From NCBI RefSeq assembly GCF_003790525.1, contig NZ_CP033635.1: DNA of 64,000 nt. The stretch is one strand, 5' to 3'. Below the pieces are notes generated by a model that searched no databases, had not been told where the DNA came from, and saw nothing but the letters and a program-made list of their open reading frames with translations. The first letter of the stretch is position 1. Each line of letters opens with the position of its first letter. Shown in pieces: positions 6,062 through 64,000 of this stretch. A program made the translations under genes and the position numbers. This stretch comes from Escherichia coli (lineage in GTDB: Bacteria; Pseudomonadota; Gammaproteobacteria; Enterobacterales; Enterobacteriaceae).

Positions 6062-6087
6062 AGAATTATCTTCCGTTTGCAGGCTAT

Positions 6088-19675: not shown

Positions 19676-19737
19676 ACAGATAATTTCTGATTTTTATTAT
19701 CCTGTTCTCTTCATAATAATGTTGTCGATATACTCCG

Positions 19738-26307: not shown

Positions 26308-26316
26308 GGAACGGCA

Positions 26317-30483: not shown

Positions 30484-30509
30484 TGTCAGAATTTTATGAG
30501 GTATGACGA

Positions 30510-30980: not shown

Positions 30981-30997
30981 ATAACAGGGAGTATGTC

Positions 30998-31312: not shown

Positions 31313-31336
31313 TCCTTATACTGGAGGGATCTTAAT

Positions 31337-32428: not shown

Positions 32429-32439
32429 CCGGAGGCCCT

Positions 32440-33291: not shown

Positions 33292-33371
33292 TTCATTTTC
33301 TGTCATGGCCTTTATGCCAGTGCAATAACGCACCGGCAGGGCGGACTACACGCTGAAACTGGAGATTTAAC

Positions 33372-34232: not shown

Positions 34233-34279
34233 GCCAGAAGGGCGGGGCAACCCGCCTTTTACGCAACAAGGAACGAGAT

Positions 34280-35873: not shown

Positions 35874-35882
35874 TAACGGGGA

Positions 35883-35918
35883 ACGCTAGCGCTGATATCC
35901 GCTAGCGTCCTTATTTTT
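35883..35918. terminator. Bidirectional hairpin between convergent lyxose-isomerase-like gene and yicH
   Basis: Perfect 9-bp stem acgctagcg / cgctagcgt with an 8-nt loop, followed by a T-rich tract. Confidence 0.5.
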
Positions 35919-37626: not shown

Positions 37627-37746
37627 GGTCTTCCATCCCGTGAAATGCACATAAGGGAGTTATGCACGATTTACGCGCAATCCTCAAGGCGGGAATGGTG
37701 AAAGAGGTGAGACTGCGGCGGTAATTATCTTACCGCCGCCAGTGAA

Positions 37747-39138: not shown

Positions 39139-39417
39139 CGAAAACAATCCCGTGGTAGCAAAGCGGGCATTTTAGCTGACCGAAAGAGAAAAGCAAACGT
39201 TTGCTACATCCTCGTTTAAATATTTAAATGAGATAAATGTACTTTTTTATATAACTTTTAGTTGTTTTCTGCTTAAAATCCATGCCATTTTTCTATTTTC
39301 AGCGAAGAATTCGAACCAGGAAAGCATGACTCGATACTCGTCATATTTCGCCTTACTGCAAATGCGCGATGAAGTATGACGAGTATGAAAGAGTGATGCG
39401 GACACAAAGGAGTAACT

Positions 39418-40623
39418 ATGTTTCATCTCGATACTTTAGCAACGCTTGTTGCCGCAACGCTGACGTTGCTGCTCGGGCGCAAGTTGGTCCATTCCGTCTC
39501 CTTTTTGAAGAAATACACCATACCGGAACCTGTTGCGGGTGGTTTATTAGTGGCGCTGGCGCTGCTGATACTGAAAAAAAGCATGGGCTGGGAAGTCAAC
39601 TTTGATATGTCCCTGCGCGATCCGTTGATGCTGGCTTTCTTCGCCACCATTGGCCTGAACGCCAACATTGCCAGTTTGCGTGCCGGTGGGCGTGTGGTTG
39701 GCATCTTCTTGATTGTGGTTGTTGGCCTGTTGGTGATGCAAAATGCCATTGGCATTGGTATGGCTAGCCTGTTAGGGCTTGATCCGCTGATGGGGCTGTT
39801 GGCCGGTTCTATTACGCTTTCCGGCGGTCACGGTACGGGAGCTGCATGGAGTAAATTGTTCATTGAACGTTATGGCTTCACCAATGCGACAGAAGTGGCG
39901 ATGGCCTGTGCAACGTTCGGTTTGGTGCTGGGCGGCTTGATTGGCGGTCCGGTGGCACGCTATCTGGTGAAACACTCCACCACACCGAACGGTATTCCGG
40001 ATGACCAGGAAGTTCCGACCGCGTTCGAAAAGCCGGATGTGGGCCGCATGATCACCTCGCTGGTGTTGATTGAAACTATCGCGCTGATTGCTATCTGCCT
40101 GACGGTGGGGAAAATTGTTGCGCAACTTTTGGCTGGTACTGCTTTTGAACTACCGACCTTCGTCTGTGTACTATTTGTTGGCGTGATTCTGAGCAACGGT
40201 CTGTCAATGATGGGCTTTTACCGCGTCTTTGAGCGAGCGGTATCCGTGCTGGGTAACGTAAGCCTGTCGTTGTTCCTGGCGATGGCGTTGATGGGGCTGA
40301 AACTGTGGGAGCTGGCTTCGCTGGCGCTGCCGATGCTGGCGATTCTGGTGGTACAGACCATCTTCATGGCGTTGTATGCCATCTTCGTTACCTGGCGCAT
40401 GATGGGCAAAAACTACGATGCGGCAGTGCTGGCTGCGGGTCACTGTGGCTTTGGCCTTGGCGCAACGCCAACAGCAATCGCCAACATGCAGGCGATCACT
40501 GAACGCTTTGGCCCGTCGCACATGGCGTTCCTGGTAGTGCCGATGGTCGGTGCGTTCTTTATCGATATCGTCAATGCGCTGGTGATTAAGCTGTATTTGA
40601 TGTTGCCGATTTTTGCCGGTTAA
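39418..40623 (+). CDS. gltS: Sodium/glutamate symporter GltS
   Basis: 401 aa beginning MFHLDTLATLVAATLTLLLGRKL; conserved position between xanP and recG. Confidence 0.9.
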   Translation: MFHLDTLATLVAATLTLLLGRKLVHSVSFLKKYTIPEPVAGGLLVALALLILKKSMGWEVNFDMSLRDPLMLAFFATIGLNANIASLRAGGRVVGIFLIVVVGLLVMQNAIGIGMASLLGLDPLMGLLAGSITLSGGHGTGAAWSKLFIERYGFTNATEVAMACATFGLVLGGLIGGPVARYLVKHSTTPNGIPDDQEVPTAFEKPDVGRMITSLVLIETIALIAICLTVGKIVAQLLAGTAFELPTFVCVLFVGVILSNGLSMMGFYRVFERAVSVLGNVSLSLFLAMALMGLKLWELASLALPMLAILVVQTIFMALYAIFVTWRMMGKNYDAAVLAAGHCGFGLGATPTAIANMQAITERFGPSHMAFLVVPMVGAFFIDIVNALVIKLYLMLPIFAG

Positions 40624-40631
40624 CCGATGAA

Positions 40632-40659
40632 GCGGCGGTATTCTCACCGCCGCCTTTTA
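40632..40659 (+). terminator. Hairpin terminator between convergent gltS and recG
   Basis: Stem gcggcggt / accgccgc with a short loop, followed by a T-run. Confidence 0.5.
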
Positions 40660-42738
40660 CGCATTCGAGTAACGTTCCGTCTCCGGCATCCAGCGTTCTA
40701 TCAGGGCTTTTGCCTGTTGTGGGTAACGTTCGTGAATATGTCGCGCCAGGCGCTGAACTTCCGGGATCATCGCCTGATCGCGCAGTAAATCCGCCACTTT
40801 AAATTCAGCATTACCCGTCTGACGCGTACCTAACAGTTCACCCGGTCCGCGAATCTCTAAGTCTTTCTGTGCAATCACAAAACCGTCGTTGCTGTCGCGC
40901 AGCACTTGCAGCCGAATTTGCGCGGTTTTGGAGAGCGGCGTTTTGTAGAGCAGCACGCAGTGAGAAGCCACCGCACCACGACCTACACGCCCGCGAAGCT
41001 GGTGTAACTGCGCCAGACCCAGACGCTCCGGGTTTTCGATAATCATCAGACTGGCGTTAGGCACATCAACACCGACTTCAATAACGGTAGTGGCAACCAG
41101 CAGGTGTAGTTCACCTTGTTTAAACGACGCCATCACCGCCTGTTTATCGGCAGGTTTCATCCGCCCGTGTACCAGGCCGACGTTCAGTTCCGGCAACGCC
41201 AGTTTCAACTCTTCCCAGGTTGCTTCCGCCGCCTGCGCTTCCAGCAATTCCGACTCTTCAATCAACGTACAAACCCAGTATGCCTGACGACCTTCAGTTA
41301 TGCAGGCGTGGCGCACGCGGTCAATAATGTCGGTACGGCGGGTATCAGGAATAGCGACCGTAGTCACTGGCGTGCGTCCTGGCGGCAGCTCATCTATCAC
41401 CGAGGTATCGAGATCGGCATACGCAGTCATCGCCAGCGTGCGGGGGATGGGCGTGGCGGTCATGATCAACTGATGCGGATGGAAGCCCTGCTGCTGGCCT
41501 TTCTCCCATAACGCCAGACGCTGATGCACGCCAAAACGATGCTGTTCGTCGATAATCACCAGCGCCAGACCGTTAAACTGCACCTGTTCCTGGAAGATGG
41601 CGTGTGTTCCGACAATCATCTGCACCTGACCGCTGGCGATGGCTTCCTGCTGTGCCAGCCGCGCTTTACCTTTCTGCTTACCGGCGAGCCAGCCCACTTC
41701 GATACCGAGCGGTGCAAACCAGTTACGGAAGTTATTGGCGTGCTGTTCGGCGAGTAATTCGGTTGGTGCCATCAATGCCACCTGTTTGCCGTGGGCAATC
41801 GCACGCAGCGCGGCGAGGGCGGCGACCAGCGTTTTACCGGAACCTACATCGCCCTGTACCAGGCGCATCATCGGCACATCCAGCGCCATATCGCGCTCGA
41901 TCTCCGCCGCTACGCGTGCCTGTGCGCCCGTTGGCTTGAACGGTAAGGCGGCGAGGAGTTTATTTTTCAGCGCGTCATTGGCGCTCAGTGGCTGGGCATG
42001 AAAACGCTGTGCTCCGGCACGTAAGGCTAACATGCTGAGGTTGTGCGCCAGCAGTTCCTCCAGAATCAGACGGCGTTGTGCCGGATGCTGGCCGGTTTCC
42101 AGATCGCTAAGCTGTAGCGTCGGCGGCGGGCGGTGCAAAGTGCGCAACGCTTCCGGTAGCGTCATCATTCCTTGTGACAGTTCCGGCGGCAGGAGTTCTT
42201 CAATGGCGCAGGTGTCGAGCAGATCAAGCGCCTGGTCGGTTAATTTACGCAGCGTGGCCTGCTTTACGCCTTCGGTTGTTGGATAAACCGGCGTAAGCGT
42301 TTCCTGCAACTCTGGCGTACTGAGATCGCCCTGCACGCGGTATTCCGGGTGGATCATCTCCGCACCATATTTACCGCGCTTTGCTTCTCCATAGGCCAGC
42401 ACGCGGCGGCCCGTCGCCAGGCTATTTTTCATTGCCGCGTTGAAGTTGAAAAAGCGCATGGTGAGAATGCCGGAACCGTCGCTGATCTGGCAGGTCATCA
42501 TCCGCCGACCGCCGAAGGAGATATTGCAGTTCAGCACTTCGCCTTCCACCGTGGCATAAACGCCCGGTAGTAGTTCTCCGATGGGGTAGAGATGGGTGCG
42601 ATCTTCGTAGCGCAGGGGAAGGTGTAAGAGTAGATCCTGCACGGTATGCAGGTTGATTTTCGCCAGCTTGTTACTAAGCGCTGCGCCAACGCCCGTTAGG
42701 GAACTGAGCGGGACAGCATCTAACAGGCGACCTTTCAT
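40657..42738 (-). CDS. recG: ATP-dependent DNA helicase RecG
   Basis: Start chosen at MKGRLLDAVPLSSLTGVGA (693 aa); Walker A GDVGSGKT and helicase motifs present. Confidence 0.9.
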   Translation of the reverse strand: MKGRLLDAVPLSSLTGVGAALSNKLAKINLHTVQDLLLHLPLRYEDRTHLYPIGELLPGVYATVEGEVLNCNISFGGRRMMTCQISDGSGILTMRFFNFNAAMKNSLATGRRVLAYGEAKRGKYGAEMIHPEYRVQGDLSTPELQETLTPVYPTTEGVKQATLRKLTDQALDLLDTCAIEELLPPELSQGMMTLPEALRTLHRPPPTLQLSDLETGQHPAQRRLILEELLAHNLSMLALRAGAQRFHAQPLSANDALKNKLLAALPFKPTGAQARVAAEIERDMALDVPMMRLVQGDVGSGKTLVAALAALRAIAHGKQVALMAPTELLAEQHANNFRNWFAPLGIEVGWLAGKQKGKARLAQQEAIASGQVQMIVGTHAIFQEQVQFNGLALVIIDEQHRFGVHQRLALWEKGQQQGFHPHQLIMTATPIPRTLAMTAYADLDTSVIDELPPGRTPVTTVAIPDTRRTDIIDRVRHACITEGRQAYWVCTLIEESELLEAQAAEATWEELKLALPELNVGLVHGRMKPADKQAVMASFKQGELHLLVATTVIEVGVDVPNASLMIIENPERLGLAQLHQLRGRVGRGAVASHCVLLYKTPLSKTAQIRLQVLRDSNDGFVIAQKDLEIRGPGELLGTRQTGNAEFKVADLLRDQAMIPEVQRLARHIHERYPQQAKALIERWMPETERYSNA

Positions 42739-42743
42739 GGCAC

Positions 42744-43433
42744 TTATCCTGCAGCCTGCATGGTAGCCCACCAGTCGGCATCAGCTTCAATTTCGCCCTG
42801 CTGATTGACGTGGGGGTAAGGCAGGCCTTTGCGTTTTGCGACTTTCGCCAGCACCGGATAGCCGCCTTCAAACAACAGGCGTTGTTGCTCTGCTTCCGGC
42901 AACATGCTGTTTTCACGCAGGTACATGCCCGCATTTTGCCGCTGGCGCTGGGCTTCGTAAAGAATGAGGGCTGAGGCAACGGAAACATTCAGCGATTGCA
43001 CCATGCCAATCATCGGAATGATGATGTCCCGATCCGCCAGGGCCAACGCTTCCTGCGTGATGCCTGTTTTCTCCTGTCCCATCAAAATACAGGTCGGGCG
43101 AGTGTAATCAATTTCGCGGAAATCGACAGCGTTATCAGAAAGATGGGTTGCCAGAATCTGCATGCCCTGGCCTTTCAGATGAGCGACGGCATCGCCAATG
43201 GTGCGGTGCGTTTTCACCTGTACCCAGCTGTTACTACCCGCAGCTGCCGAAGCCATGGTGCGCATCCGGCTACCAGGCCAGACAGCATGAACTTCATGTA
43301 CACCAACGGCATCTGCGGTACGAATAATCGCAGAAACGTTATGAGGTTTGTGGACCTGCTCCATGCAGACGGTCAGATCAGGCTGCCGCCTGGCGAGCAT
43401 TTCGCAGATACGTGCATAACGTGTTGGGTTCAT
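42744..43433 (-). CDS. trmH: tRNA (guanosine18-2'-O)-methyltransferase TrmH (SpoU)
   Basis: 229 aa beginning MNPTRYARICEMLARRQPDLTVCMEQVHKPHNVSAIIRTADAVG; last gene of the rpoZ-spoT-trmH-recG arrangement. Confidence 0.9.
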   Translation of the reverse strand: MNPTRYARICEMLARRQPDLTVCMEQVHKPHNVSAIIRTADAVGVHEVHAVWPGSRMRTMASAAAGSNSWVQVKTHRTIGDAVAHLKGQGMQILATHLSDNAVDFREIDYTRPTCILMGQEKTGITQEALALADRDIIIPMIGMVQSLNVSVASALILYEAQRQRQNAGMYLRENSMLPEAEQQRLLFEGGYPVLAKVAKRKGLPYPHVNQQGEIEADADWWATMQAAG

Positions 43434-43439
43434 AAAACA

Positions 43440-45548
43440 TTAATTTCGGTTTCGGGTGACTTTAATCACGTCTGGCATCACGCGGATTTTGCGCATGATA
43501 TTCGCCAGATGCACACGGTCACGGGCGGTCAGACGAATAAAGGCGCTGTAGACGCGACCATCTTTCTCTTCCGTATTCAAACTTTGAATATTCGAGGTCG
43601 TGGTGTTAATTGCCGCTGTCAGGTTTGCCAGCGCGCCCTGATGATTGAACATCTCCACCTTGATTTCGGTGATGAACTCCTGCGCCGTCTCTTTATCCCA
43701 TTCCACAGCCATAAACTTCTCTGGCTCTTTCTGGTAGCCACGGATGTTACGGCAGGATTCATGGTGGATCACCAGACCTTTACCGGGGCTCACGTGGGCG
43801 ATAATCGGGTCGCCAGGAATAGGGCGGCAGCATTTCGCAAAGGTGATCAGCACGCCATCGGCACCTTTAATGGGCAGATGTCCGTGACTTTGGGTTGCCG
43901 GTGGAATGGAGGCGTCCCCATGTTGCAGATTTTTCGCGACCACCACGCTCATTGCGTTACCAAGGCCGATTTCAGCCAGCAGATCGTCAAGCGTTGCCAG
44001 CTTCATGCGGTCCAGCTCGCGCTGAATATTTTCCTGCGGGATTTCATTGAGCTTACGGCTACCACCCAACGCATGGTTGAGCAGACGACGTCCCAGGCTT
44101 ACAGAATCATCACGCTTGAGGTTTTTCAGCAACTGACGAATTTTGGCGCGCGCTTTCGAGCTGACGACAAAGTTCAGCCACGCGGCATTCGGGCGAGCGC
44201 CCGGTGCGGTAATGATTTCAACGGTTTGACCGCTGGTAAGCGGCTGCGACAGCGGGTAAGGCTGACGGTCGACACGCGCGCCCACGCAGGCATGACCGAT
44301 ATCGGTATGCACCGCATAAGCGAAGTCGACGGGCGTTGCACCGGCAGGCAGTTCGACAATGCGCCCTTCCGGTGTGAAAACGTAAATCTCATCCGGGAAG
44401 AGATCGGATTTAACGCTCTCGATAAATTCAAACGAGCTACCGGCACTCTGTTGCAGCTCCAGCAGGCTTTGCATCCAGCGCTGGGCGCGGATTTGCGCGG
44501 TGGTGCTGGTTTCGCCGTGCTCTTTATAAGCCCAGTGCGCGGCAACACCCATCTCCGCCATCTGATCCATATCTTCGGTACGGATTTGGACCTCAACCGG
44601 CACGCCGTGCGGGCCAATCATCGAGGTGTGCAAAGACTGATAGCCGTTCGCTTTTGGAATGGCGATGTAGTCTTTCACGCGACCCGGACGCGGCTTGTAC
44701 AGGCTATGCATTTGCCCGAGCACGCGATAACAGGTGTCGGAATCATTGACGATCACGCGGAAAGCGTAGATGTCCATGATTGAGTGAAAACGCTGCTCTT
44801 TGAGCACCATTTTGCAGTAGATCGAATAAAGATGCTTCTCGCGACCACTGACGCGGCACGGTATTCCCGCTTCCTGCAAACGCCCTTCGATTTCAGAGAG
44901 GATTTTTTGGATCATCTCTTTACGGTTGCCGCGTGCGGCTTTCACCACTTCTTTGATTACGCGGTAACGGTTGGGATACAGCGCCTCAAAACCCAGCTCT
45001 TCGAGTTCGGTTTTAATGTGGTGGATACCTAAACGGTGCGCCAGCGGGCTGTAAATTTCGAGTGTTTCACGGGCGATGCGGCGACGTTTGTCCGGGCGAA
45101 GTGAGCCCAGCGTGCGCATGTTGTGGGTACGGTCGGCAAGTTTGATGAGAATGACGCGGATATCCTGCACCATCGCCATAATCATCTTGCGAAAGTTTTC
45201 GGCCTGCGCCTCTTTCTTATCGCGGAACTTGAGCTTATCAAGTTTCGACACCCCCTCTACCAGCTCGGCGACGCTTTTACCAAAAAGCTGTTCCATGTCC
45301 TGGTAGGTGGCGGGAGTATCTTCAATCACGTCATGCAGCAGCGCCGCCATCAGCGTTTCATAGTCGAGTTTCATCTCGGCCAGAATGCAGGCAACCGCCA
45401 CCGGGTGCGTGATATAGGGTTCACCGCTTGAACGTGTTTGCCCCTCGTGAGCATCACGTGCAACGAGATACGCCTGCCGCAGACGCTTGATTTGGTCTTC
45501 CGGCAGGTAGGTTTGAATCAGTTGATTCAGGCTTTCAAACAGATACAA
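43440..45548 (-). CDS. spoT: Bifunctional (p)ppGpp synthetase/hydrolase SpoT
   Basis: 702 aa beginning MYLFESLNQLIQTYLPEDQIKRLRQAY; HD hydrolase domain motifs present. Confidence 0.95.
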   Translation of the reverse strand: MYLFESLNQLIQTYLPEDQIKRLRQAYLVARDAHEGQTRSSGEPYITHPVAVACILAEMKLDYETLMAALLHDVIEDTPATYQDMEQLFGKSVAELVEGVSKLDKLKFRDKKEAQAENFRKMIMAMVQDIRVILIKLADRTHNMRTLGSLRPDKRRRIARETLEIYSPLAHRLGIHHIKTELEELGFEALYPNRYRVIKEVVKAARGNRKEMIQKILSEIEGRLQEAGIPCRVSGREKHLYSIYCKMVLKEQRFHSIMDIYAFRVIVNDSDTCYRVLGQMHSLYKPRPGRVKDYIAIPKANGYQSLHTSMIGPHGVPVEVQIRTEDMDQMAEMGVAAHWAYKEHGETSTTAQIRAQRWMQSLLELQQSAGSSFEFIESVKSDLFPDEIYVFTPEGRIVELPAGATPVDFAYAVHTDIGHACVGARVDRQPYPLSQPLTSGQTVEIITAPGARPNAAWLNFVVSSKARAKIRQLLKNLKRDDSVSLGRRLLNHALGGSRKLNEIPQENIQRELDRMKLATLDDLLAEIGLGNAMSVVVAKNLQHGDASIPPATQSHGHLPIKGADGVLITFAKCCRPIPGDPIIAHVSPGKGLVIHHESCRNIRGYQKEPEKFMAVEWDKETAQEFITEIKVEMFNHQGALANLTAAINTTTSNIQSLNTEEKDGRVYSAFIRLTARDRVHLANIMRKIRVMPDVIKVTRNRN

Positions 45549-45566
45549 GGGCGACCCGCTTTGTGA

Positions 45567-45842
45567 TTAACGACGACCTTCAGCAATAGCGGTAACGGCT
45601 TGTAATTCAGCGGCTTCCTGCTCTTGCTGTTCCTGGCGTTCACGAACGTCGAGGATCTGGTTGTTGATCAGACCTTCTTCGATTTCGCGCAGCGCGATTA
45701 CAGTGGTTTTATCGTTTTCTTCCGGTACCAGCGGATCCTTTCCGCCTACCTGCATCTGACGAGCGCGACGCGCGGCGACCAGTACCAGGTCAAAACGGTT
45801 ACCAATTTTCTCTACAGCGTCCTGAACAGTTACGCGTGCCAT
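45567..45842 (-). CDS. rpoZ: RNA polymerase omega subunit
   Basis: 91 aa, [31 protein letters not shown]... Confidence 0.95.
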
Positions 45843-45896
45843 ACTTAAAAAGCTCCACAGGTGAAGAAATGACTGGGCATGATACTGAAATCAGGT

Positions 45897-46684
<788 letters not shown>

Positions 46685-46685
46685 C

Positions 46686-49073
<2,388 letters not shown>

Positions 49074-49363
49074 GGTTCTCTCCCTAAAAATCTGTCTGGC
49101 AGGGTAGCGATTTGTGCGTATTGTCACGATTGAGATTTTTTAAGGTGAGAGGAAATTGATAACTTTTAGTTATGTGAAATCGCTATTTTCTGTAGCGTAG
49201 ATGTATTCTTCTGACTTCTTGTCTGAGAAAATGCATAAGAAAAAATAGGTTAAAATTGAGGGTGGAAAAGAAAGGTGCAATGTTTAGCCATTGTGTTCAC
49301 CGCACCTGGACTTTGGCTTACGCATCGGGTATCTCAATCAACAAAAAGAGTTTTTAGTTTCTG

Positions 49364-50188
49364 CTATTTCTTCTCTGTAATTTTTACACTGTTTTCCAAC
49401 TGCTTGATGCTGACCTGCGGGGTCGGCAACTCTTCAGGCATGGTTCCGCCAAGTTCCTGAATGGTTTGCCTCACCTTGCTACCCACGTCAAAGTGTGTGG
49501 TATTAGCTTGCTGTTTTGAATTCACGCCATCCCGCTTGAGTTTTTCTTCTGTTTGGGTAGCTCGAAAGAGATTAGCCGCCAGTTCTGTTGAACCCATATG
49601 ATCCAGGATCTTCTGACTCTTTTTCAGCCCCTTCCGCTGATGGATGGCTTTCTGATCTAATCCACCATACAGTCCCCGGTAACCATGATTCTGAAATATG
49701 GCGAAATCGGTAGCTGTCGCTACCCCAGCTTGCTGCGCTGCCTCAACTAATTGTTTGTTATGTTCTTTCAACTCATTTCTCAGAAAAAGACGCTTTTCGT
49801 CTTCACGAAGTTGCCTGAAAGCTTCATCGTCAGCCAGCTCCTGCCGTCGGGTCTGGATAGCAAAATAAGTTTGCCCTGCCGCAATAACCGGTTTCGCAGG
49901 GTCGCCGTTTTGTACTACCAGGTAACAGGCATAGCGGGAGAGATGAACATCTTCAAGTTCTCGTTGAGCCCCTGAACCTAATACAACCATTTTGGTGGTT
50001 TCAACGAAATGGTCAGATGCAGCTTGATTGCTGGCTTCGCACGCTTGAGTCGCGCGGGCCAGTACCTTTTGAAAATTGCGCCAGTCCCGATAATCCAGTA
50101 ACGGAGCCAATTCTCTCGCTGACCAAAATTCTTGCCCTTCAGTGCCATAATGCCGTATTTCTTCAAAAGGTTGATGATGTTCGTTCAT
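49364..50188 (-). CDS. dinD: DNA-damage-inducible protein DinD
   Basis: Start chosen at MNEHHQPFEEIRHYGTEGQEFW (274 aa). Confidence 0.85.
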   Translation of the reverse strand: MNEHHQPFEEIRHYGTEGQEFWSARELAPLLDYRDWRNFQKVLARATQACEASNQAASDHFVETTKMVVLGSGAQRELEDVHLSRYACYLVVQNGDPAKPVIAAGQTYFAIQTRRQELADDEAFRQLREDEKRLFLRNELKEHNKQLVEAAQQAGVATATDFAIFQNHGYRGLYGGLDQKAIHQRKGLKKSQKILDHMGSTELAANLFRATQTEEKLKRDGVNSKQQANTTHFDVGSKVRQTIQELGGTMPEELPTPQVSIKQLENSVKITEKK

Positions 50189-50409
50189 TGCCCACTCCAT
50201 GTGATATCGATTGCAAGGAAAGTAAGTTTACAACTGTGTTTATATACAGTTGTGAGTATCTCACGTTCTCACTGCGCTGGGCAAAAAAACATCGCAAAAT
50301 CTGGAGCAGGCACGCAAAACAGAATTGAATGTTGCGGGGAGGAAAAATGCCGCTCTGTTTGAGTGGGCGGCATTTGTGAAGGCTGAAAAGGAAGAATTGG
50401 CGTTACGAG

Positions 50410-51273
50410 TTATTCAATGTTCTGAATCTGCTCGCGCATCTGCTCAATCAACACTTTCAGCTCAATCGCGGAGTTTGTCACTTCGGCATTGATAGACTTC
50501 GAAGCAAGAGTGTTCGACTCGCGGTTGAACTCCTGCATCATAAAGTCCAGACGACGGCCAACCGCTTCTTTTTTCTTCAGAATGTTGTAGGTCTCTTTGA
50601 CATGCGCTTCGAGGCGATCCAGTTCTTCGGCAACGTCAATTCGTTGTGCCAGCAGAACCAACTCCTGCTCCAGACGGTTGTTTTCCAGTTGCACCTGAGC
50701 ATCTTCCAGCTTCGCGACCAGACGCTCACGCTGCCATTGCAGGATTTCCGGCATATGGGCGCGGACTTTGACCACTTCGGCGCTGACGCCTTCCAGACGC
50801 TGCTCAATCAACACTTTCAGCGCCTGACCTTCGGTTTCACGTGCGATGATAAAGTCGTCCAGCGTACCATCCAACGCCGCGAGAATTTCAGCGGCAATCG
50901 CGTCGAGATCCTGCTCCTGGGCTGCCATCACGCCCGGCCAGCGTAGAATATCAACCGGATTGATTTCCCCTTCGTCACTCTGCATTTTTACCCAGTTCGC
51001 GGCAGTTACCAGCTGTTTAGCCAGTTTTTCGTTGAGGATCAGCTCACCTTGCGCGCTAACATCTGGCTCATAGCGCAGGGTACATTCCACTTTACCGCGC
51101 GTCAGGCGAGAACGAATACGCTCACGAACGACAGGTTCAAGGCTACGGAACTGCTCCGGCAGACGAAAGTAAGTTTCCAGATAACGCTGGTTTACCGAGC
51201 GCATTTCCCAGGTTGCGCTCCCCCATTCACCCTTGATTTCACGCCGGGCGTAGGCGGTCATACTGCGGATCAT
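50410..51273 (-). CDS. yicC: YicC-family protein
   Basis: 287 aa beginning MIRSMTAYARREIKGEWGSATWEMRSVNQRYLE. Confidence 0.9.
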   Translation of the reverse strand: MIRSMTAYARREIKGEWGSATWEMRSVNQRYLETYFRLPEQFRSLEPVVRERIRSRLTRGKVECTLRYEPDVSAQGELILNEKLAKQLVTAANWVKMQSDEGEINPVDILRWPGVMAAQEQDLDAIAAEILAALDGTLDDFIIARETEGQALKVLIEQRLEGVSAEVVKVRAHMPEILQWQRERLVAKLEDAQVQLENNRLEQELVLLAQRIDVAEELDRLEAHVKETYNILKKKEAVGRRLDFMMQEFNRESNTLASKSINAEVTNSAIELKVLIEQMREQIQNIE

Positions 51274-51399
51274 AGACGTTCCTGTTTATAAAAGGAGAGG
51301 TGGAAGGATTATAGCCATCGATGCCTTGTCAGGATAGGAATAACCGCCGGAAGTCCGTATAATGCGCAGCCACATTTGTTTCAAGCCGGAGATTTCAAT

Positions 51400-52116
51400 A
51401 TGCGTCCAGCAGGCCGTAGCAATAATCAGGTGCGTCCCGTTACCCTGACTCGTAACTATACAAAACATGCAGAAGGCTCGGTGCTGGTCGAATTTGGCGA
51501 TACCAAAGTATTGTGTACCGCCTCTATTGAAGAAGGCGTGCCGCGCTTCCTGAAAGGTCAGGGCCAGGGCTGGATCACCGCAGAGTACGGCATGCTGCCA
51601 CGTTCTACCCACACCCGTAACGCGCGTGAAGCAGCGAAAGGTAAGCAGGGTGGGCGCACAATGGAAATCCAGCGTCTGATCGCCCGTGCTCTTCGCGCAG
51701 CAGTAGATTTGAAAGCGCTGGGTGAGTTCACTATTACGCTGGACTGCGACGTGCTTCAGGCTGATGGTGGCACGCGTACCGCTTCGATTACGGGTGCCTG
51801 CGTGGCGCTGGCAGATGCGTTACAGAAGCTGGTGGAAAACGGCAAGCTGAAAACCAACCCGATGAAAGGGATGGTAGCCGCGGTTTCTGTCGGGATTGTG
51901 AACGGCGAAGCGGTTTGCGATCTGGAATACGTTGAAGACTCTGCCGCAGAGACCGACATGAACGTAGTGATGACCGAAGACGGGCGCATCATTGAAGTGC
52001 AGGGGACGGCAGAAGGCGAGCCGTTCACCCATGAAGAGCTGCTCACCTTGTTGGCGCTGGCCCGAGGGGGAATCGAATCCATTGTAGCGACGCAGAAGGC
52101 GGCGCTGGCAAACTGA
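51400..52116 (+). CDS. rph: Ribonuclease PH, apparently full length
   Basis: Start chosen at [20 protein letters not shown]; 238 aa ending ...ATQKAALAN. The stop is followed directly by the attenuator hairpin. Confidence 0.9.
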
Positions 52117-52121
52117 TTTTT

Positions 52122-52150
52122 AAGGCGACTGATGAGTCGCCTTTTTTTTG
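52122..52150 (+). terminator. rph-pyrE intercistronic attenuator / intrinsic terminator
   Basis: Hairpin aaggcgact gatg agtcgcctt followed by a T8 run, immediately upstream of pyrE. Confidence 0.7.
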
Positions 52151-52181
52151 TCTGTAGAAAAGTAAGATGAGGAGCGAAGGC

Positions 52182-52823
52182 ATGAAACTATATCAGCGCC
52201 AGTTTATTGAATTTGCGCTTAGCAAGCAGGTGTTAAAGTTTGGCGAGTTTACGCTGAAATCCGGGCGCAAAAGCCCCTATTTCTTCAACGCCGGGCTGTT
52301 TAATACCGGGCGCGATCTGGCACTGTTAGGCCGTTTTTACGCTGAAGCATTGGTGGATTCCGGCATTGAGTTCGATCTGCTGTTTGGCCCTGCTTACAAA
52401 GGGATCCCGATTGCCACCACAACTGCCGTGGCGATGGCGGAGCATCATGACCTGGACCTGCCGTACTGCTTTAACCGCAAAGAAGCAAAAGACCACGGTG
52501 AAGGCGGCAATCTGGTTGGTAGCGCGTTACAAGGACGCGTAATGCTGGTGGATGATGTGATCACCGCCGGAACGGCGATTCGCGAGTCGATGGAAATTAT
52601 TCAGGCCAATGGCGCGACGCTTGCTGGCGTATTGATTTCGCTCGATCGTCAGGAACGGGGGCGCGGCGAGATTTCGGCAATTCAGGAAGTTGAGCGTGAT
52701 TACAACTGCAAAGTGATCTCTATCATCACCCTGAAAGACCTGATTGCTTACCTCGAAGAGAAGCCAGAAATGGCGGAACATCTGGCGGCGGTTAAGGCCT
52801 ACCGCGAAGAGTTTGGCGTTTAA
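52182..52823 (+). CDS. pyrE: Orotate phosphoribosyltransferase
   Basis: Start chosen at [36 protein letters not shown] (213 aa); PRPP-binding motif [12 protein letters not shown]. Confidence 0.9.
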
Positions 52824-52859
52824 AGAAACTCGCCGGATGAAAAGTCATCCGGCGTCATA

Positions 52860-53456
52860 TTACTGCAACTGTGCAGCAATTAGCGGCCAGCGGGCGTCAA
52901 AGTCATCCGTCGGGCGGTATTTAAACTCGCTGCGGACAAAGCGTGACAGCATACCTTCACAGAAGGCCAGGATCTGGCTTGCCAGCAGGGTTTCATCCGT
53001 CGCGTAGCCTTCGCCCTCACGCATTCTCTTTTCACGCAATACCTGACGCAACTGCGCTTCAATACGCTCGAATAGCTGGTTGATGCGCCCTTGCAGGCGA
53101 TCCTGTTCAAACATTAGTGCATGACCAGTGAGGATGCGGGTCAGGCCAGGATTACGCTCACCAAAACCGAGAAGCAGCAACACAATCAGACGCAGGCGCG
53201 CTGTGGTGTCTTTCTCATCTTTCAGAATCAGATTGATGCGAGTAATCAGGCTATCTTCGATAAACTCAATCAGGCTATCGAACATGCGGGTCTTACTGGG
53301 GAAGTGGCGATACAGTGCCGCTTCGGAAACGCCGACAGAGGCGGCCAGTTTTGCCGTCGTGATACGTTGGCTTCCATCGCTGGATTCCAGCATCAGCGCC
53401 AGAGACTGAAGTATTTCCTCGCGACGGTTCCTTTTCGCAGTTTGTTTTTCTGCCAT
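52860..53456 (-). CDS. slmA: Nucleoid occlusion factor SlmA (TetR family)
   Basis: Start chosen at [24 protein letters not shown] (198 aa). Confidence 0.9.
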
Positions 53457-53562
53457 GTTACAAAATACCCCTGAAAATAAGCACTTGCCAGGCGGCACCC
53501 ACGCTATGACCGCAAACGAAATGTTTGCGGCTATGTTATGACGTTATTCGGATGCGTATGTG

Positions 53563-54018
53563 TTACTGACGACCAGAGTGACCAAAGCCGCCTTCACCGC
53601 GGTCGGTGGCGTCGAAATCTTCCACCAGATTAAATTCAGCCTGTACTACCGGAACAAAAATCATCTGGGCGATGCGTTCGCCAGGTTGAATGGTGAAGCT
53701 GTCCTGACCACGGTTCCATACGGAAATCATCAACTGGCCCTGATAGTCAGAATCGATCAATCCTACCAGGTTACCAAGCACGATACCGTGCTTATGTCCC
53801 AATCCGGAGCGCGGCAGCATCATTGCCGCCAGTGAAGGATCGGCAATATGAATCGCCAGCCCGGTCGGAACCAGCGTAGTGTCACCCGGAGCCAGTTCTA
53901 CGGCGTCGTCGAGACAGGCACGCAGGTCAAGTCCGGCAGAGCCAGAGGTGGCATAAGTCGGGAGCGGAAATTCCTTCCCAACGCGCGGGTCCAGAATCTT
54001 AACGTCGATTTTTTTCAT
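53563..54018 (-). CDS. dut: dUTP pyrophosphatase
   Basis: [35 protein letters not shown]...; about 151 aa. Confidence 0.9.
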
Positions 54019-55219
54019 CATAACGGGTCACGATCTCGTCGAGTAATAATTGGCCAAGGAGCTCTTTGCGCTCAAGCGGTAAGACTTTATCTCCGTCCTG
54101 CCAGAAAAGGTGTAATGCGTTGTTGTCGCTGTTAAATCCTTGAGTTGGCTGGGAAACATCGTTCGCGCAGATCAGATCAAGGTTTTTACGGATACGTTTT
54201 TGCCGGGCGTATTCTTCCACATTATTTGTTTCGGCGGCAAATCCAACGACGTAGGGTCGATGGTCTTTTAGTGCGGCAACGCCTGCGACGATATCGGGGT
54301 TTTTAACCATTTTTATTGTTAATTCATCACCCTGCGTGGCCTGCTTTTTGATTTTTTCTGGGGCCACGGTAGCTGCGCGATAATCCGCCACGGCGGCGCA
54401 ACCGATAAAAATATTTTGCTGCTGTACAGAAGCATTCACGGCGGCTTCCATTTCCAGCGCGGTCATCACATCAACACGGTTAACAAACGGTGGCGTCGGT
54501 AGTGAAACCGGACCTGATACCAGCGTGACGTTCGCGCCACGACGGGCTGCGGCGGCGGCGATAGCAAAACCCATCTTGCCGGAGCTGTGATTAGAGATAT
54601 AACGCACGGGATCGAGCGGTTCACGCGTCGGACCGGCGGTAATCATAATGTTCAGATGTTTCAGGTCGTTGACGGGCGAAAAATGCGCTACCGCCATATC
54701 CACAATGGTTAACGGATCGAGCATTCGCCCTGGGCCGATATCACCACAAGCCTGACTGCCGCTGTCTGGCCCCCAGATGAGCAAACCACGCGAGGCAAGC
54801 ACCTCTAAATTATGCTGGGTGGCGGCGGCACGGTACATCTGCTGGTTCATGGCGGGGAGCACGGCTACAGGCGCAGGTGTAGCCAGACAAATCGTCGATA
54901 CCAGGTCATTCGCCATTCCGGCAGCAACACGGGCAATTAAATCTGCCGTGGCAGGGGCGAGAATCACTAAATCAGCCCATTTACCCAGCTCAATATGGCC
55001 CATAGCGGCTTCGGCTGCCGGGTCCAGCAGACTGTCGGAAACGGGATAACCAGAAACCGCCTGCAAGCTAAGTGGGGTGATAAAGGCTTTTGCCGCTTCG
55101 GTCATGGCTACGCGGACGTCGGCCCCGCGATCGCGCAAACGACGCACCAGTTCAGGGGTTTTATAGGCAGCAATACCGCCGCTGACGCCGAGAACGATTT
55201 TTTTACCGGCCAGGCTCAT
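53999..55219 (-). CDS. coaBC: Bifunctional phosphopantothenoylcysteine decarboxylase / synthetase
   Basis: Start chosen at [29 protein letters not shown] (406 aa). Confidence 0.9.
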
Positions 55220-55384
55220 GATGATTTTTCCTGTTGGGTGACACCAGAAGTTGGCGATTTTATCACAATACTTTTGTTGTCGTGCCTTCACCTGAGAATC
55301 ACTTTGCGAGGCGCTTTCCAGGATTGAAAACTGGCCGTCGATTTAACGGAACGGCTATGACAGGATGCGAGCACCACAAAGGAG

Positions 55385-56059
55385 GTGAAGGTGAAAAACA
55401 ATGCACAGCTGTTGATGCCGCGCGAAAAAATGCTGAAGTTTGGTATTAGCGCCTTAACGGATGTCGAGCTGCTGGCGCTATTTCTGCGTACCGGAACGCG
55501 CGGTAAAGATGTATTAACCCTGGCAAAAGAGATGCTGGAGAATTTCGGCTCTCTTTATGGCTTGTTAACCTCTGAATATGAACAGTTTAGTGGCGTTCAT
55601 GGAATTGGCGTGGCGAAATTCGCCCAGTTAAAGGGGATTGCCGAACTGGCGCGGCGTTACTACAACGTGCGGATGCGTGAAGAAAGCCCTTTACTCAGCC
55701 CGGAGATGACGCGGGAATTTTTACAAAGCCAGCTTACGGGCGAGGAGCGGGAGATCTTTATGGTGATCTTTCTCGACTCACAACACCGGGTTATAACGCA
55801 TAGCCGTCTTTTTTCCGGCACGCTAAACCATGTTGAAGTCCATCCTCGGGAAATTATCCGCGAAGCGATAAAAATAAATGCCTCGGCGCTGATCCTTGCA
55901 CATAATCACCCTTCGGGTTGTGCTGAACCCAGTAAAGCGGATAAACTCATTACTGAACGGATAATAAAGAGTTGTCAGTTCATGGATTTACGCGTGCTCG
56001 ACCATATCGTGATTGGGCGTGGAGAGTATGTTTCTTTTGCCGAACGCGGCTGGATTTAA
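55385..56059 (+). CDS. yicR: RadC-like JAB-domain protein YicR
   Basis: ...[44 protein letters not shown] motif HNHPSG. The true start may be the GTG two codons downstream. Confidence 0.85.
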
Positions 56060-56254
56060 CCCGCTATGCGCGATCCTTCGGGATCTTTGTCTGTTCGGGA
56101 CTTGAGCACATCGCTGAGTCAGCGTATACTACGCCACCTTTGAGAATCTCGGGTTTGGCATTTGGGCCTGGCAATCGAGAGTTCACATAGAACTGCGATG
56201 ACCGGGCTGTAAAGCCTGACGAGGCGCCAATACCCCATACGAAGCTCGAGCTAA

Positions 56255-56512
<258 letters not shown>

Positions 56513-56529
56513 GTACTTAGAGGAAATAA

Positions 56530-56700
<171 letters not shown>

Positions 56701-56724
56701 TTTTTGCTTTGATGTAACGAAAAA

Positions 56725-56747
56725 CCTCGCCCCGGCGGGGTTTTTTG
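56725..56747 (+). terminator. Rho-independent terminator after rpmG
   Basis: GC-rich hairpin (ccccggcgggg) followed by a T6 run. Confidence 0.5.
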
Positions 56748-56797
56748 TTATCTGCCTGCCCCCATATTGACTGCATCTGTTCATTCCTGGAGATGCT

Positions 56798-57607
56798 ATG
56801 CCTGAATTACCCGAAGTTGAAACCAGCCGCCGCGGCATAGAACCGCATCTCGTTGGTGCAACCATTCTTCATGCGGTGGTGCGCAACGGACGCTTGCGCT
56901 GGCCGGTTTCAGAAGAGATCTACCGTTTAAGCGACCAACCAGTGCTTAGCGTGCAGCGGCGGGCTAAATATCTGCTGCTGGAGCTGCCTGAGGGCTGGAT
57001 TATCATTCATTTGGGGATGTCTGGCAGCCTGCGCATCCTTCCAGAAGAACTTCCCCCTGAAAAGCATGACCATGTTGATTTGGTGATGAGCAACGGTAAA
57101 GTGCTGCGCTACACCGATCCGCGCCGCTTTGGTGCCTGGCTGTGGACCAAAGAGCTGGAAGGGCACAACGTGCTGGCCCATCTTGGACCGGAGCCGCTTA
57201 GCGACGATTTCAACGGTGAGTACCTGCATCAGAAGTGCGCGAAGAAAAAAACGGCGATTAAACCATGGCTGATGGATAACAAGCTGGTGGTAGGCGTAGG
57301 GAATATCTATGCCAGCGAATCTCTGTTTGCTGCGGGGATCCATCCGGATCGGCTGGCGTCATCACTGTCGCTGGCAGAGTGTGAATTGTTAGCTCGGGTG
57401 ATTAAAGCGGTGTTGCTGCGTTCGATTGAGCAGGGTGGTACAACGCTGAAAGATTTTCTGCAAAGTGATGGTAAACCGGGCTATTTCGCGCAGGAATTGC
57501 AGGTTTACGGGCGAAAAGGCGAGCCGTGTCGGGTGTGCGGTACGCCGATTGTGGCGACTAAACATGCGCAGCGGGCAACGTTTTATTGTCGGCAGTGCCA
57601 GAAGTAA
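56798..57607 (+). CDS. mutM: Formamidopyrimidine-DNA glycosylase
   Basis: 269 aa beginning [24 protein letters not shown]-terminal zinc finger [26 protein letters not shown]. Confidence 0.95.
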
Positions 57608-57645
57608 TTGATGCGAGCCGGATGGCATACCATCCGGCATAAACG

Positions 57646-59410
<1,765 letters not shown>

Positions 59411-59761
59411 AGTAAATAGCTGACTTATGGATGTGCTGGGGATTCTATGTATTTAGCTGTGGCTTTACCATTACTTTTCCCGTTTTTGACTTAAATAGCA
59501 ATTTACCCGCCAATTCTTGCTGAACATCTATACTTTTTTTGTATTTTTATGCGATTCATTGATTTCTGCAGTACGTGCAGGAAGGAATCGCAGAGCAACA
59601 GTAAAAGAATATGGTTGCTAATGATTTTATTTGATTGATTTCTTTATTGAAAATCAACAATGTGCTTAAAAATCATTCGGGTCGGATTGCCGCGAAAGAA
59701 GTGATACACTAGCGCGTCAATATCAGTGCGGTATCAGTATTCAGGTAGCTGTTGAGCCTGG

Positions 59762-59773
59762 GGCGGTAGCGTG
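59762..59773 (+). promoter_or_regulatory. ops element (GGCGGTAGCGTG) within a JUMPstart-like leader of the waaQ operon
   Basis: Exact 12-nt ops motif on the coding strand about 50 nt upstream of the waaQ start, in the waaA-waaQ divergent intergenic region. Confidence 0.7.
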
Positions 59774-59822
59774 CTTTTTCTGCTTCACCTTAATCGGATA
59801 ATCTCAACAAAAAGAGTTACTT

Positions 59823-60881
59823 GTGGATAAGCCATTTCGAAGAATTTTGCTCATTAAGATGCGTTTTCATGGGGATATGTTATTAACTACTCCCGTCATT
59901 AGTTCGCTGAAAAAAAATTACCCTGACGCAAAAATCGATGTGCTGCTTTATCAGGACACCATCCCGATCCTGTCTGAAAATCCAGAGATTAACGCGCTCT
60001 ACGGCATAAAAAATAAAAAAGCAAAAGCCTCAGAAAAAATTGCCAACTTTTTCCATCTCATCAAGATATTACGTGCCAATAAGTATGACCTTATCGTTAA
60101 TCTTACCGATCAATGGATGGTTGCTATACTGGTTCGCTTATTAAATGCCCGTGTGAAAATTTCCCAGGATTATCATCATCGGCAGTCTGCTTTTTGGCGT
60201 AATAGTTTCACTCATTTGGTGCCGTTGCAGGGTGGAAATGTGGTGGAAAGTAACTTATCCGTGCTGACGCCATTGGGACTTGAATCGTTGGTGAAGCAGA
60301 CAACCATGAGTTACCCGCCTGCAAGCTGGAAACGTATGCGTCGCGAACTTGATCACGCTGGTGTTGGACAAAATTATGTGGTTATCCAACCTACGGCGCG
60401 GCAAATCTTCAAATGCTGGGACAACGCCAAGTTTTCCGCTGTGATTGATGCCTTACATGCTCGTGGTTATGAAGTCGTTCTGACGTCCGGCCCAGATAAA
60501 GACGATCTGGCCTGCGTCAATGAAATTGCGCAGGGATGCCAGACGCCACCAGTAACGGCGCTGGCCGGAAAGGTGACCTTCCCGGAACTTGGTGCGTTAA
60601 TCGATCATGCGCAGCTGTTTATTGGCGTTGATTCCGCACCGGCGCATATTGCCGCTGCAGTTAATACGCCGCTGATATCGCTGTTTGGTGCGACAGACCA
60701 TATTTTCTGGCGTCCCTGGTCAAATAACATGATTCAATTCTGGGCGGGAGATTACCGGGAAATGCCAACGCGCGATCAGCGTGACCGAAATGAGATGTAT
60801 CTTTCGGTTATTCCGGCGGCAGATGTCATTGCAGCTGTCGATAAATTACTTCCCTCCTCCACGACAGGTACGTCGTTATGA
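59823..60881 (+). CDS. waaQ: LPS heptosyltransferase III WaaQ (start codon uncertain; GTG at 59823 or a downstream TTG/ATG)
   Basis: GT9 heptosyltransferase-like sequence ...ILLIKMRFHGDMLLTTPVISSLKKNYPDAKIDVLLYQDT...; first gene after the ops leader. Confidence 0.85.
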   Translation: MDKPFRRILLIKMRFHGDMLLTTPVISSLKKNYPDAKIDVLLYQDTIPILSENPEINALYGIKNKKAKASEKIANFFHLIKILRANKYDLIVNLTDQWMVAILVRLLNARVKISQDYHHRQSAFWRNSFTHLVPLQGGNVVESNLSVLTPLGLESLVKQTTMSYPPASWKRMRRELDHAGVGQNYVVIQPTARQIFKCWDNAKFSAVIDALHARGYEVVLTSGPDKDDLACVNEIAQGCQTPPVTALAGKVTFPELGALIDHAQLFIGVDSAPAHIAAAVNTPLISLFGATDHIFWRPWSNNMIQFWAGDYREMPTRDQRDRNEMYLSVIPAADVIAAVDKLLPSSTTGTSL

Positions 60882-62002
60882 TCGTTGCTTTTTGTTTATA
60901 TAAATATTTTCCCTTTGGCGGTTTGCAGCGCGATTTTATGCGTATTGCTCAGACAGTTGCCGCCCGAGGTCATCATGTTCGGGTTTATACCCAGTCGTGG
61001 GAAGGCGAATGCCCTGATGTATTTGAACTGATCAAAGTGCCGGTTAATTCGCATACCAATCACGGGCGCAATGCGGAATATTTTGCCTGGGTGCAAAAAC
61101 ATTTACGTGAACACCCCGTCGATAGAGTCGTTGGATTTAATAAAATGCCGGGGCTGGACGTTTATTATGCCGCTGATGTTTGTTATGCCGAGAAAGTAGC
61201 GCAGGAGAAAGGCTTTTTCTATCGCCTGACGTCACGTTATCGCCATTATGCCGCCTTTGAGCGGGCAACCTTCGAACAGGGCAAGCCGACACAGCTGCTG
61301 ATGCTGACAGATAAGCAAATCGCCGATTTCCAGAAACATTATCAGACTGAAGCGGAACGTTTTCATATTCTGCCACCGGGGATTTATCCTGATCGTAAAT
61401 ATAGCCAGCAACCAGCGAATAGCCGTGAAATCTTCCGTAAGAAGAATGGAATAACCGAACAACAATATTTATTGTTGCAGGTCGGTTCAGACTTCACGCG
61501 TAAAGGTGTCGATCGTTCCATTGAAGCACTTGCTTCGTTACCGGATTCGCTGCGCCACAACACATTACTATATGTTGTTGGGCAGGATAAACCGCGAAAA
61601 TTTGAGGCGCTGGCAGAAAAACGCGGCGTGCGCAGTAATGTTCACTTCTTCTCGGGGCGCAACGATGTCTCGGAATTAATGGCGGCGGCGGATTTATTAC
61701 TTCATCCTGCCTACCAGGAAGCGGCGGGAATTGTGTTGCTGGAAGCGATAACTGCAGGATTACCGGTACTAACAACAGCCGTTTGTGGCTATGCGCATTA
61801 TATTGTCGACGCCAATTGCGGCGAGGCTATTGCTGAGCCATTCCGCCAGGAAACATTGAATGAGATTTTACGCAAAGCGTTAACGCAATCTTCATTGCGC
61901 CAGGCCTGGGCGGAAAATGCGCGACATTATGCTGATACACAAGATTTATACAGTCTGCCAGAGAAAGCGGCGGACATCATAACGGGTGGTCTGGATGGTT
62001 GA
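60878..62002 (+). CDS. waaG: LPS core glucosyltransferase I WaaG
   Basis: 374 aa beginning [47 protein letters not shown] overlap with the waaQ stop. Confidence 0.9.
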
Positions 62003-62792
62003 ACTTAAAGAGCCGTTTGCCACGTTATGGCGCGGTAAAGATCCTTTTGAGGAAGTTAAAACCTTGCAGGGTGAGGTATTTCGTGAACTGGAAACTCGCC
62101 GCACTCTGCGCTTTGAAATGGCGGGCAAAAGCTATTTTCTCAAATGGCATCGCGGCACGACCCTGAAAGAGATAATCAAAAATTTACTCTCATTGCGGAT
62201 GCCAGTATTAGGCGCAGACCGCGAATGGAATGCGATTCATCGACTGCGGGATGTCGGCGTTGATACTATGTATGGGGTGGCATTCGGCGAAAAAGGCATT
62301 AATCCGCTGACCAGAACCTCGTTTATTATTACCGAAGATCTGACACCAACCATCAGTCTGGAAGATTACTGTGCTGACTGGGCGACCAACCCACCAGATG
62401 TTCGCGTAAAGCGTATGCTTATTAAGCGTGTCGCGACGATGGTGCGCGATATGCATGCTGCGGGCATTAACCACCGTGACTGTTATATCTGTCATTTCCT
62501 GCTGCACTTGCCTTTTTCCGGTAAGGAAGAGGAGTTAAAAATTTCAGTAATTGACCTGCACCGGGCGCAGCTTCGCACGCGCGTTCCATGTCGTTGGCGC
62601 GATAAAGATCTTATTGGACTTTATTTTTCTTCGATGAATATTGGCCTGACTCAACGGGATATCTGGCGGTTTATGAAAGTGTATTTTGTCGCCCCGCTTA
62701 AAGACATTCTCAAGCAGGAACAAGGGCTGCTGTCGCAAGCAGAAGAAAAAGCCACAAAAATCAGGGAAAGAACGATTCGAAAATCGTTGTAA
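61995..62792 (+). CDS. waaP: LPS core heptose kinase WaaP
   Basis: Start chosen at [21 protein letters not shown] (265 aa); overlaps the waaG 3' end. Confidence 0.9.
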
Positions 62793-62807
62793 TTTCCGGA
62801 GAGAAAT

Positions 62808-63824
62808 ATGAGTGCCCACTATTTTAATCCACAAGAGATGATCAATAAGACAATCATCTTCGATGAAAGGCCAGAGGCGTCAGTGGCATCATCATTCCAT
62901 GTTGCTTATGGCATTGATCAGAACTTTCTTTTTGGTTGTGGTGTTTCAATCACGTCAGTTTTGTTACATAACAACGACGTGAGTTTTGTCTTCCACGTTT
63001 TTATTGATGATATCCCTGACGCCGATATCCAGCGTTTATCCCAATTGGCGAAAAGCTATCATACCTGTATCCAGATCCATCTGGTAAATTGTGAACGGCT
63101 TAAGGTATTACCGACGACCAAAAATTGGTCTATTGCCATGTATTTCCGTTTTGTAATTGCAGATTACTTTATTGATCAACAAGATAAGATCCTGTACCTG
63201 GATGCTGATATCGCCTGTCAGGGAACCTTAAAACCGCTGATAACAATGGATCTTGCCAATAACGTTGCTGCTGTTGTTACTGAACGCGATGCTAACTGGT
63301 GGTCGTTACGGGCTCAAAGTCTGCAGTGTAATGAACTTGAAAAGGGTTACTTTAATTCAGGTGTCCTGTTAATTAATACACCTGCGTGGGCGCAGGAGTC
63401 CGTTTCTGCTAAAGCGATGTCGATGCTTGCTGATAAAGCCGTCGTTTCCCGTTTAACCTATATGGATCAAGATATACTAAATCTTATCCTGTTAGGGAAA
63501 GTTAAATTCATTGATGCTAAATACAATACGCAATTTAGTTTAAATTATGAATTAAAAAAATCATTTATTTGTCCAATTAATGATGAAGCCGTATTAATTC
63601 ATTATGTCGGCCCGACAAAACCCTGGCATTACTGGGCCGGTTATCCAAGCGCGCAGCCATTTATCAAAGCCAAAGAAGCATCGCCCTGGAAAAATGAACA
63701 GTTAATGCGGCCAATTAACTCAAATTATGCTCGTTATTGCGCCAAGCATAATTTTAAACAAAATAAACCAATTAACGGGATAATGAATTATATTTATTAT
63801 TTTTATTTAAAGATAATAAAATGA
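62808..63824 (+). CDS. LPS outer-core GT8 glycosyltransferase (WaaO/WaaI family)
   Basis: 338 aa with GT8 features (GIDQNFLFGCGVSITSVLLHN, DADIACQG DxD-type motif, NSGVLLIN). Its position directly after waaP differs from K-12, where waaS and waaB follow waaP. Confidence 0.75.
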   Translation: MSAHYFNPQEMINKTIIFDERPEASVASSFHVAYGIDQNFLFGCGVSITSVLLHNNDVSFVFHVFIDDIPDADIQRLSQLAKSYHTCIQIHLVNCERLKVLPTTKNWSIAMYFRFVIADYFIDQQDKILYLDADIACQGTLKPLITMDLANNVAAVVTERDANWWSLRAQSLQCNELEKGYFNSGVLLINTPAWAQESVSAKAMSMLADKAVVSRLTYMDQDILNLILLGKVKFIDAKYNTQFSLNYELKKSFICPINDEAVLIHYVGPTKPWHYWAGYPSAQPFIKAKEASPWKNEQLMRPINSNYARYCAKHNFKQNKPINGIMNYIYYFYLKIIK

Positions 63825-63839
63825 CATTGAGAAAAGTTA

Positions 63840-64000
63840 AATGAATGAATTTATAAAAGAACGGTTTTCGTATTTAGCAGATAATAAAAAAGAAAACGTC
63901 CCAGAGCTAAATGTTTCCTACGGTATCGATAAGAATTTTTTGTATGGTGCTGGCGTTTCAATTTCTTCCGTTTTGATTAATAATTCAGATATTAATTTTG
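63840..64000 (+). CDS. Second GT8 glycosyltransferase (WaaT/WaaJ/WaaR-like), 5' part only; runs off the window end
   Basis: Translation MNEFIKERFSYLADNKKENVPELNVSYGIDKNFLYGAGVSISSVLINNSDINF parallels the N-terminus of the preceding GT8 protein. Confidence 0.6.

Follow-up and report, generated by a model that had tools for sequence, protein, structure and literature searches.

The sequence analyzed, referred to throughout as the window, is a 64,000-nucleotide stretch of Escherichia coli DNA that includes rph and pyrE, both on the plus strand, with a transcription attenuator between them. The rph-pyrE operon is a textbook case of transcription-translation coupling for UTP sensing. The anatomy of the operon, its allele, its identity to the K-12 sequence and the frequency of the allele in the population were each determined directly. 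MG1655 was used as the reference for alignment (NC_000913.3, positions 3813500-3818500), in which rph is annotated as “truncated RNase PH”.

Genes and attenuator of the rph-pyrE locus

The rph gene (51400..52116, plus strand) begins with an ATG at 51400 and ends with a TGA at 52114..52116. Translation of the open reading frame gives 238 codons plus the stop and a product ending in ...ATQKAALAN, and the first-pass annotation had described the gene as full length on these grounds. The profile matches bear this out. The RNase PH equivalog model TIGR01966 scores 380.8 bits against a cutoff of 141.5, with protein residues 2-236 aligned to profile positions 1-235 of 236, and the two Pfam domains of RNase PH (PF01138 and PF03725) are both above cutoff. 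The closest relatives of solved structure are RNase PH enzymes, the best PDB match being 1r6l (“Ribonuclease PH”; E = 3.7e-104, residues 2-237). SMS-3-5 carries an identical gene, annotated as “rph: ribonuclease PH” with a length of 717 nt. Relative to MG1655, the gene carries 15 substitutions, of which 13 are synonymous and two are missense (V138A and I216T, K-12 residue first). The window enzyme has Ala138 (codon 138, position 51812) and Thr216 (codon 216, position 52046), and the K-12 counterparts are Val and Ile.

A scan for promoters upstream of rph returned no consensus promoter; a perfect TATAAT is present at 51358..51363 without a good −35 element at standard spacing. The scanned region is identical to that of MG1655, as are the rph 5′ region and the attenuator in the alignment.

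The native rph stop codon (TGA, 52114..52116, plus strand) is separated from the attenuator hairpin only by TTTTT (52117..52121). The attenuator itself (52122..52149, plus strand) was located by terminator scan, by folding and by identity to MG1655. It consists of a hairpin at 52122..52143 with a 9-bp stem and a 4-nt loop, AAGGCGAC-TGAT-GAGTCGCCTT, in which five of the nine pairs are G-C, leading into a run of eight T residues at 52142..52149. Note that the first two T residues of this run are also the last two bases of the stem. The hairpin and T8 run had previously been placed at 52122..52150; both elements are present and the attenuator is intact, but the run ends at 52149, position 52150 being a G.

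The predicted folding energy of the 31-nt attenuator element is −14.7 kcal/mol, versus −3.4 ± 1.8 for dinucleotide shuffles (z = −6.25), and none of 200 shuffles was equally stable. The hairpin also forms the core of both the minimum free energy structure and the centroid structure in a 61 nt context. No alternative anti-terminator hairpin appeared in the folds of either the 31-nt element or the 61 nt context, and an Rfam scan of the window gave no family over the attenuator, its only matches being tRNA-Sec and JUMPstart. A generic terminator scan of a 1.8-kb region yielded four sites where 2.2 were expected, a count that is not significant by itself. The attenuator call was therefore decided by base-for-base identity to the characterized K-12 attenuator and not by the generic scan. 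The alignment shows zero differences between the window and MG1655 across 52071..52188, an interval that runs from the 3′ end of rph through attenuator and leader into the start of pyrE. Because the two sequences are identical from the G run to pyrE codon 2, the attenuator is the element that has been studied experimentally in K-12. The region thus contains an intrinsic terminator of K-12 sequence between an upstream open reading frame and pyrE. The argument that a ribosome halted at a stop codon beside a hairpin will have the 5′ arm of that hairpin within its footprint is established knowledge, and the 5-nt gap places the rph TGA within this distance.

Downstream of the attenuator lies the pyrE leader (52150..52181, plus strand), which is identical to that of MG1655 and includes the sequence GAGGAG at 52169..52174. 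Situated 7 nt before the ATG, this motif resembles a Shine-Dalgarno sequence and would serve as that of pyrE. The pyrE gene (52182..52823, plus strand) encodes an orotate phosphoribosyltransferase of 213 amino acids that matches TIGR00336 with 240.7 bits (cutoff 106.8). The window and MG1655 proteins share 211 of 213 residues, the differences being P3L and L85M. Codon 3 (52188..52190) is CTA, a rare leucine codon, in the window versus CCA (proline) in K-12, and it is the only non-textbook detail within the operon. Beyond pyrE, a 10-bp G+C-rich hairpin occupies 52831..52854, between the convergent ends of pyrE (52823) and slmA (52860). It resembles a terminator on the minus strand and probably ends slmA transcription, and perhaps that of pyrE too.

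The G run and the rph-1 allele

In the rph-1 allele, a single-nucleotide frameshift eliminates RNase PH activity, lowers pyrE expression and causes partial pyrimidine starvation, according to PMC3378859 and PMC9997739, both of which cite Jensen 1993. The site of this one-base deletion is a run of five G residues (52066..52070, plus strand) that is intact in the window. Alignment to MG1655 revealed a single indel in the aligned region, namely GGGGG at these positions versus GGGG in MG1655. Because the four-G run of MG1655 is the rph-1 deletion, its rph translation amounts to 228 amino acids ending in ...ARGESNPL, and its stop codon now falls 34 nt short of the hairpin. The translation of MG1655, together with the sequence, identifies this stop as the TAG at 52085..52087 (plus strand), which is out of frame in the window. 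The gap from stop to hairpin is accordingly 5 nt in the window versus 34 nt for rph-1. When one G was put back into MG1655 rph, the product became 238 amino acids long with a C-terminus exactly as in the window.

Neither the one-base deletion in the G run nor a 228-amino-acid product ending in GESNPL, the marks of rph-1, is found in the window by alignment. What is found is the wild-type rph+ arrangement, with five G residues near codon 223, a product of 238 amino acids and a stop codon adjoining the attenuator. The first-pass annotation had held that MG1655 carries the rph-1 frameshift and that the window does not, and had proposed alignment to MG1655 rph as the check, to be overturned by the same frameshift. 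The alignment (five G versus four, with a 228-amino-acid product in MG1655) agrees with this on both counts, and the frameshift is absent from the window.

To count alleles, short queries centered on the G run were searched against 5,426 complete E. coli genomes, with the megablast seed forced across the run. The 33-mer with five G residues (the intact form) was present in 5,244 of the 5,426 genomes and the 32-mer with four (the rph-1 form) in 169. The other 13 genomes matched neither query, and two of these had no match at all to the 901-nt region. Among the matches listed for the four-G allele (60 of 169), all were K-12 laboratory lines or genomes of K-12 size; they included MG1655, BW25113, J53, HMS174, MFDpir and others, many with rph at MG1655-like coordinates. 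A 49-mer covering the stop codon, hairpin and T-tract was at least 99% identical in 4,584 of the 5,426 genomes and 95-99% identical in 825. The intact rph-pyrE allele with its attenuator is the norm in E. coli (∼97% of sequenced genomes), and MG1655 is the exception. Given 5,244 genomes with the intact run versus 169 with the deletion, the five-G allele is the norm of the species and not a notable property of this strain. In a small way these counts bring home that it is the reference strain that is the outlier; the finding as a whole carries very little biological weight.

Homopolymer runs are error-prone on some sequencing platforms and the window is a single sequence. The fifth G could in principle be a sequencing or assembly error, in which case the rph gene of the strain would really be frameshifted. 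This is exceedingly improbable, as the five-G 33-mer recurs in 5,244 independent complete genomes, 22 genomes match the window at 100% over the whole 901-nt region, and the four-G form is confined to K-12-like genomes among the matches listed. We therefore read the five-G run as genuine.

Lineage of the source strain and its selC island

Over the 901-nt region, the window has 100% identity to SMS-3-5 and to 21 further isolates from humans, dogs, chickens, a pangolin and water. BLAST searches of window positions 25001..39000 and 39001..64000 both gave 100% identity with SMS-3-5 and related strains, and about 20 isolates besides SMS-3-5 share this identity over the 39 kb. Near-identity to MG1655 over the locus and its flanks, the mark of K-12 lineage, was not seen, the identity being ∼98%. 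A 33-mer carrying the CTA variant of pyrE was found in 23 of the 5,426 complete genomes, all of them SMS-3-5-like isolates and none K-12, so that this codon is usable as a lineage marker. The window is identical to none of the 5,426 complete genomes. Sequence identity places it in a natural-isolate, SMS-3-5-like clade with a selC island of its own.

A laboratory derivative of K-12 in which rph-1 had been repaired, whether by reversion, by P1 transduction of rph+ or by engineering, would also have an intact G run. Such strains exist (for example, MG1693 transduced to rph+, PMC3378859, and a true reversion of rph-1 made by engineering, PMC5933015), and the attenuator and rph 5′ region of the window do match MG1655 exactly. 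The remainder of the sequence leaves this origin almost no probability. The rph gene differs from that of MG1655 by 15 substitutions, V138A and I216T among them; the 39 kb from 25001 to 64000 match SMS-3-5 and other wild isolates at 100%; the P3L variant of pyrE occurs in only 23 genomes, none of which is K-12; and the 24-kb selC island is without a full-length match in K-12. The natural-isolate origin is thus retained, and the earlier statement that the source strain lacks the rph-1 lesion is upheld by the five-G run.

The intact rph-pyrE locus is a provenance marker that sets the window outside the MG1655/W3110 branch of K-12. Since the window is not from that branch, the source strain would not be expected to show the two defects, partial pyrimidine starvation and lack of RNase PH, by which work on physiology and RNA processing is complicated in MG1655 and W3110.

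Collinearity of the whole window with SMS-3-5 was considered and rejected, because window positions 1..25000 are not collinear and are fully covered by TUM9803 only. The annotation of the left part of SMS-3-5 (a P4-like element, SIR2 and ETT2 genes) is not applicable to window positions 1..25000. This part of the window is a genomic island of ∼24 kb at selC (∼1..24640), with a tyrosine integrase (23054..24238, minus strand) beside tRNA-Sec (24542..24632, minus strand). Full coverage of positions 1..25000 was obtained in one of the 5,426 genomes, TUM9803, at 99.9% with one extra IS3 copy. In the TUM9803 annotation, the genes of the island include a TPR protein, PhoX and an outer-membrane protein; an allantoin/oxamate-like cluster of fdrA, YlbE, an AllH-family protein, carbamate kinase and a xanthine permease; and an MFS transporter, a LacI regulator and remnants of ISL3 and IS3. 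An open reading frame of 500 amino acids at 19738..21240 (plus strand) is annotated in TUM9803 as a phosphoethanolamine transferase. The TUM9803 counterpart is shorter (488 amino acids) and has an IS3 element at or just past its 3′ end. Matches of this frame to the CptA, EptA and MCR models are weak, the best being 110 bits versus a cutoff of 404, and the MCR score being ∼30 versus 1250. By these scores it is classed as a divergent member of the family and not as MCR.

In the right part of the window, a JUMPstart RNA (Rfam RF01707) was detected at 59735..59773 on the plus strand, with 55.2 bits versus a cutoff of 35. It lies just upstream of the rfaQ-waaG-rfaP operon for the lipopolysaccharide core, as placed by collinearity with SMS-3-5, and this is its expected location.

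Expected regulation and comparison with known operons

For the coupling mechanism and the phenotype, the account below draws on published work or on inference. The ribosome-occlusion mechanism was derived from work on K-12, and Jensen 1993 and Bonekamp 1984 are cited here through secondary sources. Expression of pyrE is governed by a UTP-modulated attenuator whose function is tied to translation of the upstream frame; through this link between translation and attenuation, pyrE expression is set by where the rph stop codon lies with respect to the attenuator loop (PMC2784333; PMC5933015). An 82-bp deletion that recurs in evolution experiments with MG1655 moves the rph stop codon to just downstream of the attenuator loop (PMC2784333; PMC5933015). 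Array data for two strains with the 82-bp deletion did not make up-regulation of pyrE evident (PMC2784333).

The geometry of the window, with a stop codon 5 nt from the 5′ arm and no competing anti-terminator fold, fits the needs of this model. Applied to the window, transcription would begin upstream of rph, and the intrinsic terminator formed by the hairpin (52122..52143) and the U8 run would have to be passed before pyrE is reached. At low UTP, RNA polymerase would be slowed and the ribosome would follow it closely to the rph stop codon. Since the rph frame ends 5 nt before the hairpin, a ribosome close behind the polymerase at this stop would cover the 5′ arm, so that no terminator would form and transcription would read through into pyrE. 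With plentiful UTP, the polymerase would outrun the ribosome, the hairpin would form and transcription would terminate at the U8 run. In K-12 carrying rph-1, with one G lost, translation ends 34 nt short of the hairpin, so that anti-termination fails and too little pyrE is expressed. Because the five-G run is undeleted in the window, active RNase PH and normal regulation of pyrE are expected, and, from its sequence identity, the operon should work by the K-12 mechanism. No feature of the window sequence contradicts the reading of an intact operon.

Codon identity near the start of an open reading frame can affect translation. The CTA at codon 3, which sits 7 nt into the pyrE frame and is confined to 23 of the 5,426 genomes, might together with L85M cause control of pyrE to differ in this lineage despite the intact rph and hairpin. 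We regard this as very unlikely, since the attenuator, the leader and the Shine-Dalgarno region are the same as in K-12, and the window PyrE is 99% identical to that of K-12 and far above the TIGR00336 cutoff. Only a slightly better chance is given to the related idea that the clade-restricted change from CCA to CTA and L85M measurably alter translation of pyrE or the activity of orotate phosphoribosyltransferase. If this were true, the pyrimidine economy of the SMS-3-5-like lineage would be altered, and the output of the operon would be non-textbook even though the attenuator is intact.

The preferred reading, which we hold with near certainty, is that the window comes from a natural E. coli outside K-12 and carries the bicistronic rph-pyrE operon in its wild-type form, in which the translation-coupled, UTP-sensitive intercistronic attenuator is intact. 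This is a textbook operon in its usual wild-type condition and as such is already known.

Three known systems can be set beside it. The rph-1 locus of K-12 MG1655 and W3110 shares the locus and the attenuator sequence with the window, but has one G fewer (four, against five in the window), encodes 228 amino acids instead of 238, and places its stop codon 34 nt instead of 5 nt ahead of the hairpin. SMS-3-5 (NC_010498.1) has the same RNase PH and PyrE sequences as the window, P3L included; at selC, however, it carries a P4-like satellite with a SIR2 gene, whereas the window has a different island with its best match in TUM9803. The wild-type rph+ operon of E. coli, as described by Poulsen, Bonekamp and Jensen (1984-1993) and cited here through PMC5933015 and PMC2784333, has the same gene order and the same 238-amino-acid C-terminus. 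It also has the same 5-nt gap between stop codon and hairpin, the same hairpin and the same U8 run, and the window differs from the K-12 form of this operon only by neutral-looking polymorphism (15 substitutions in rph and two residues in PyrE).
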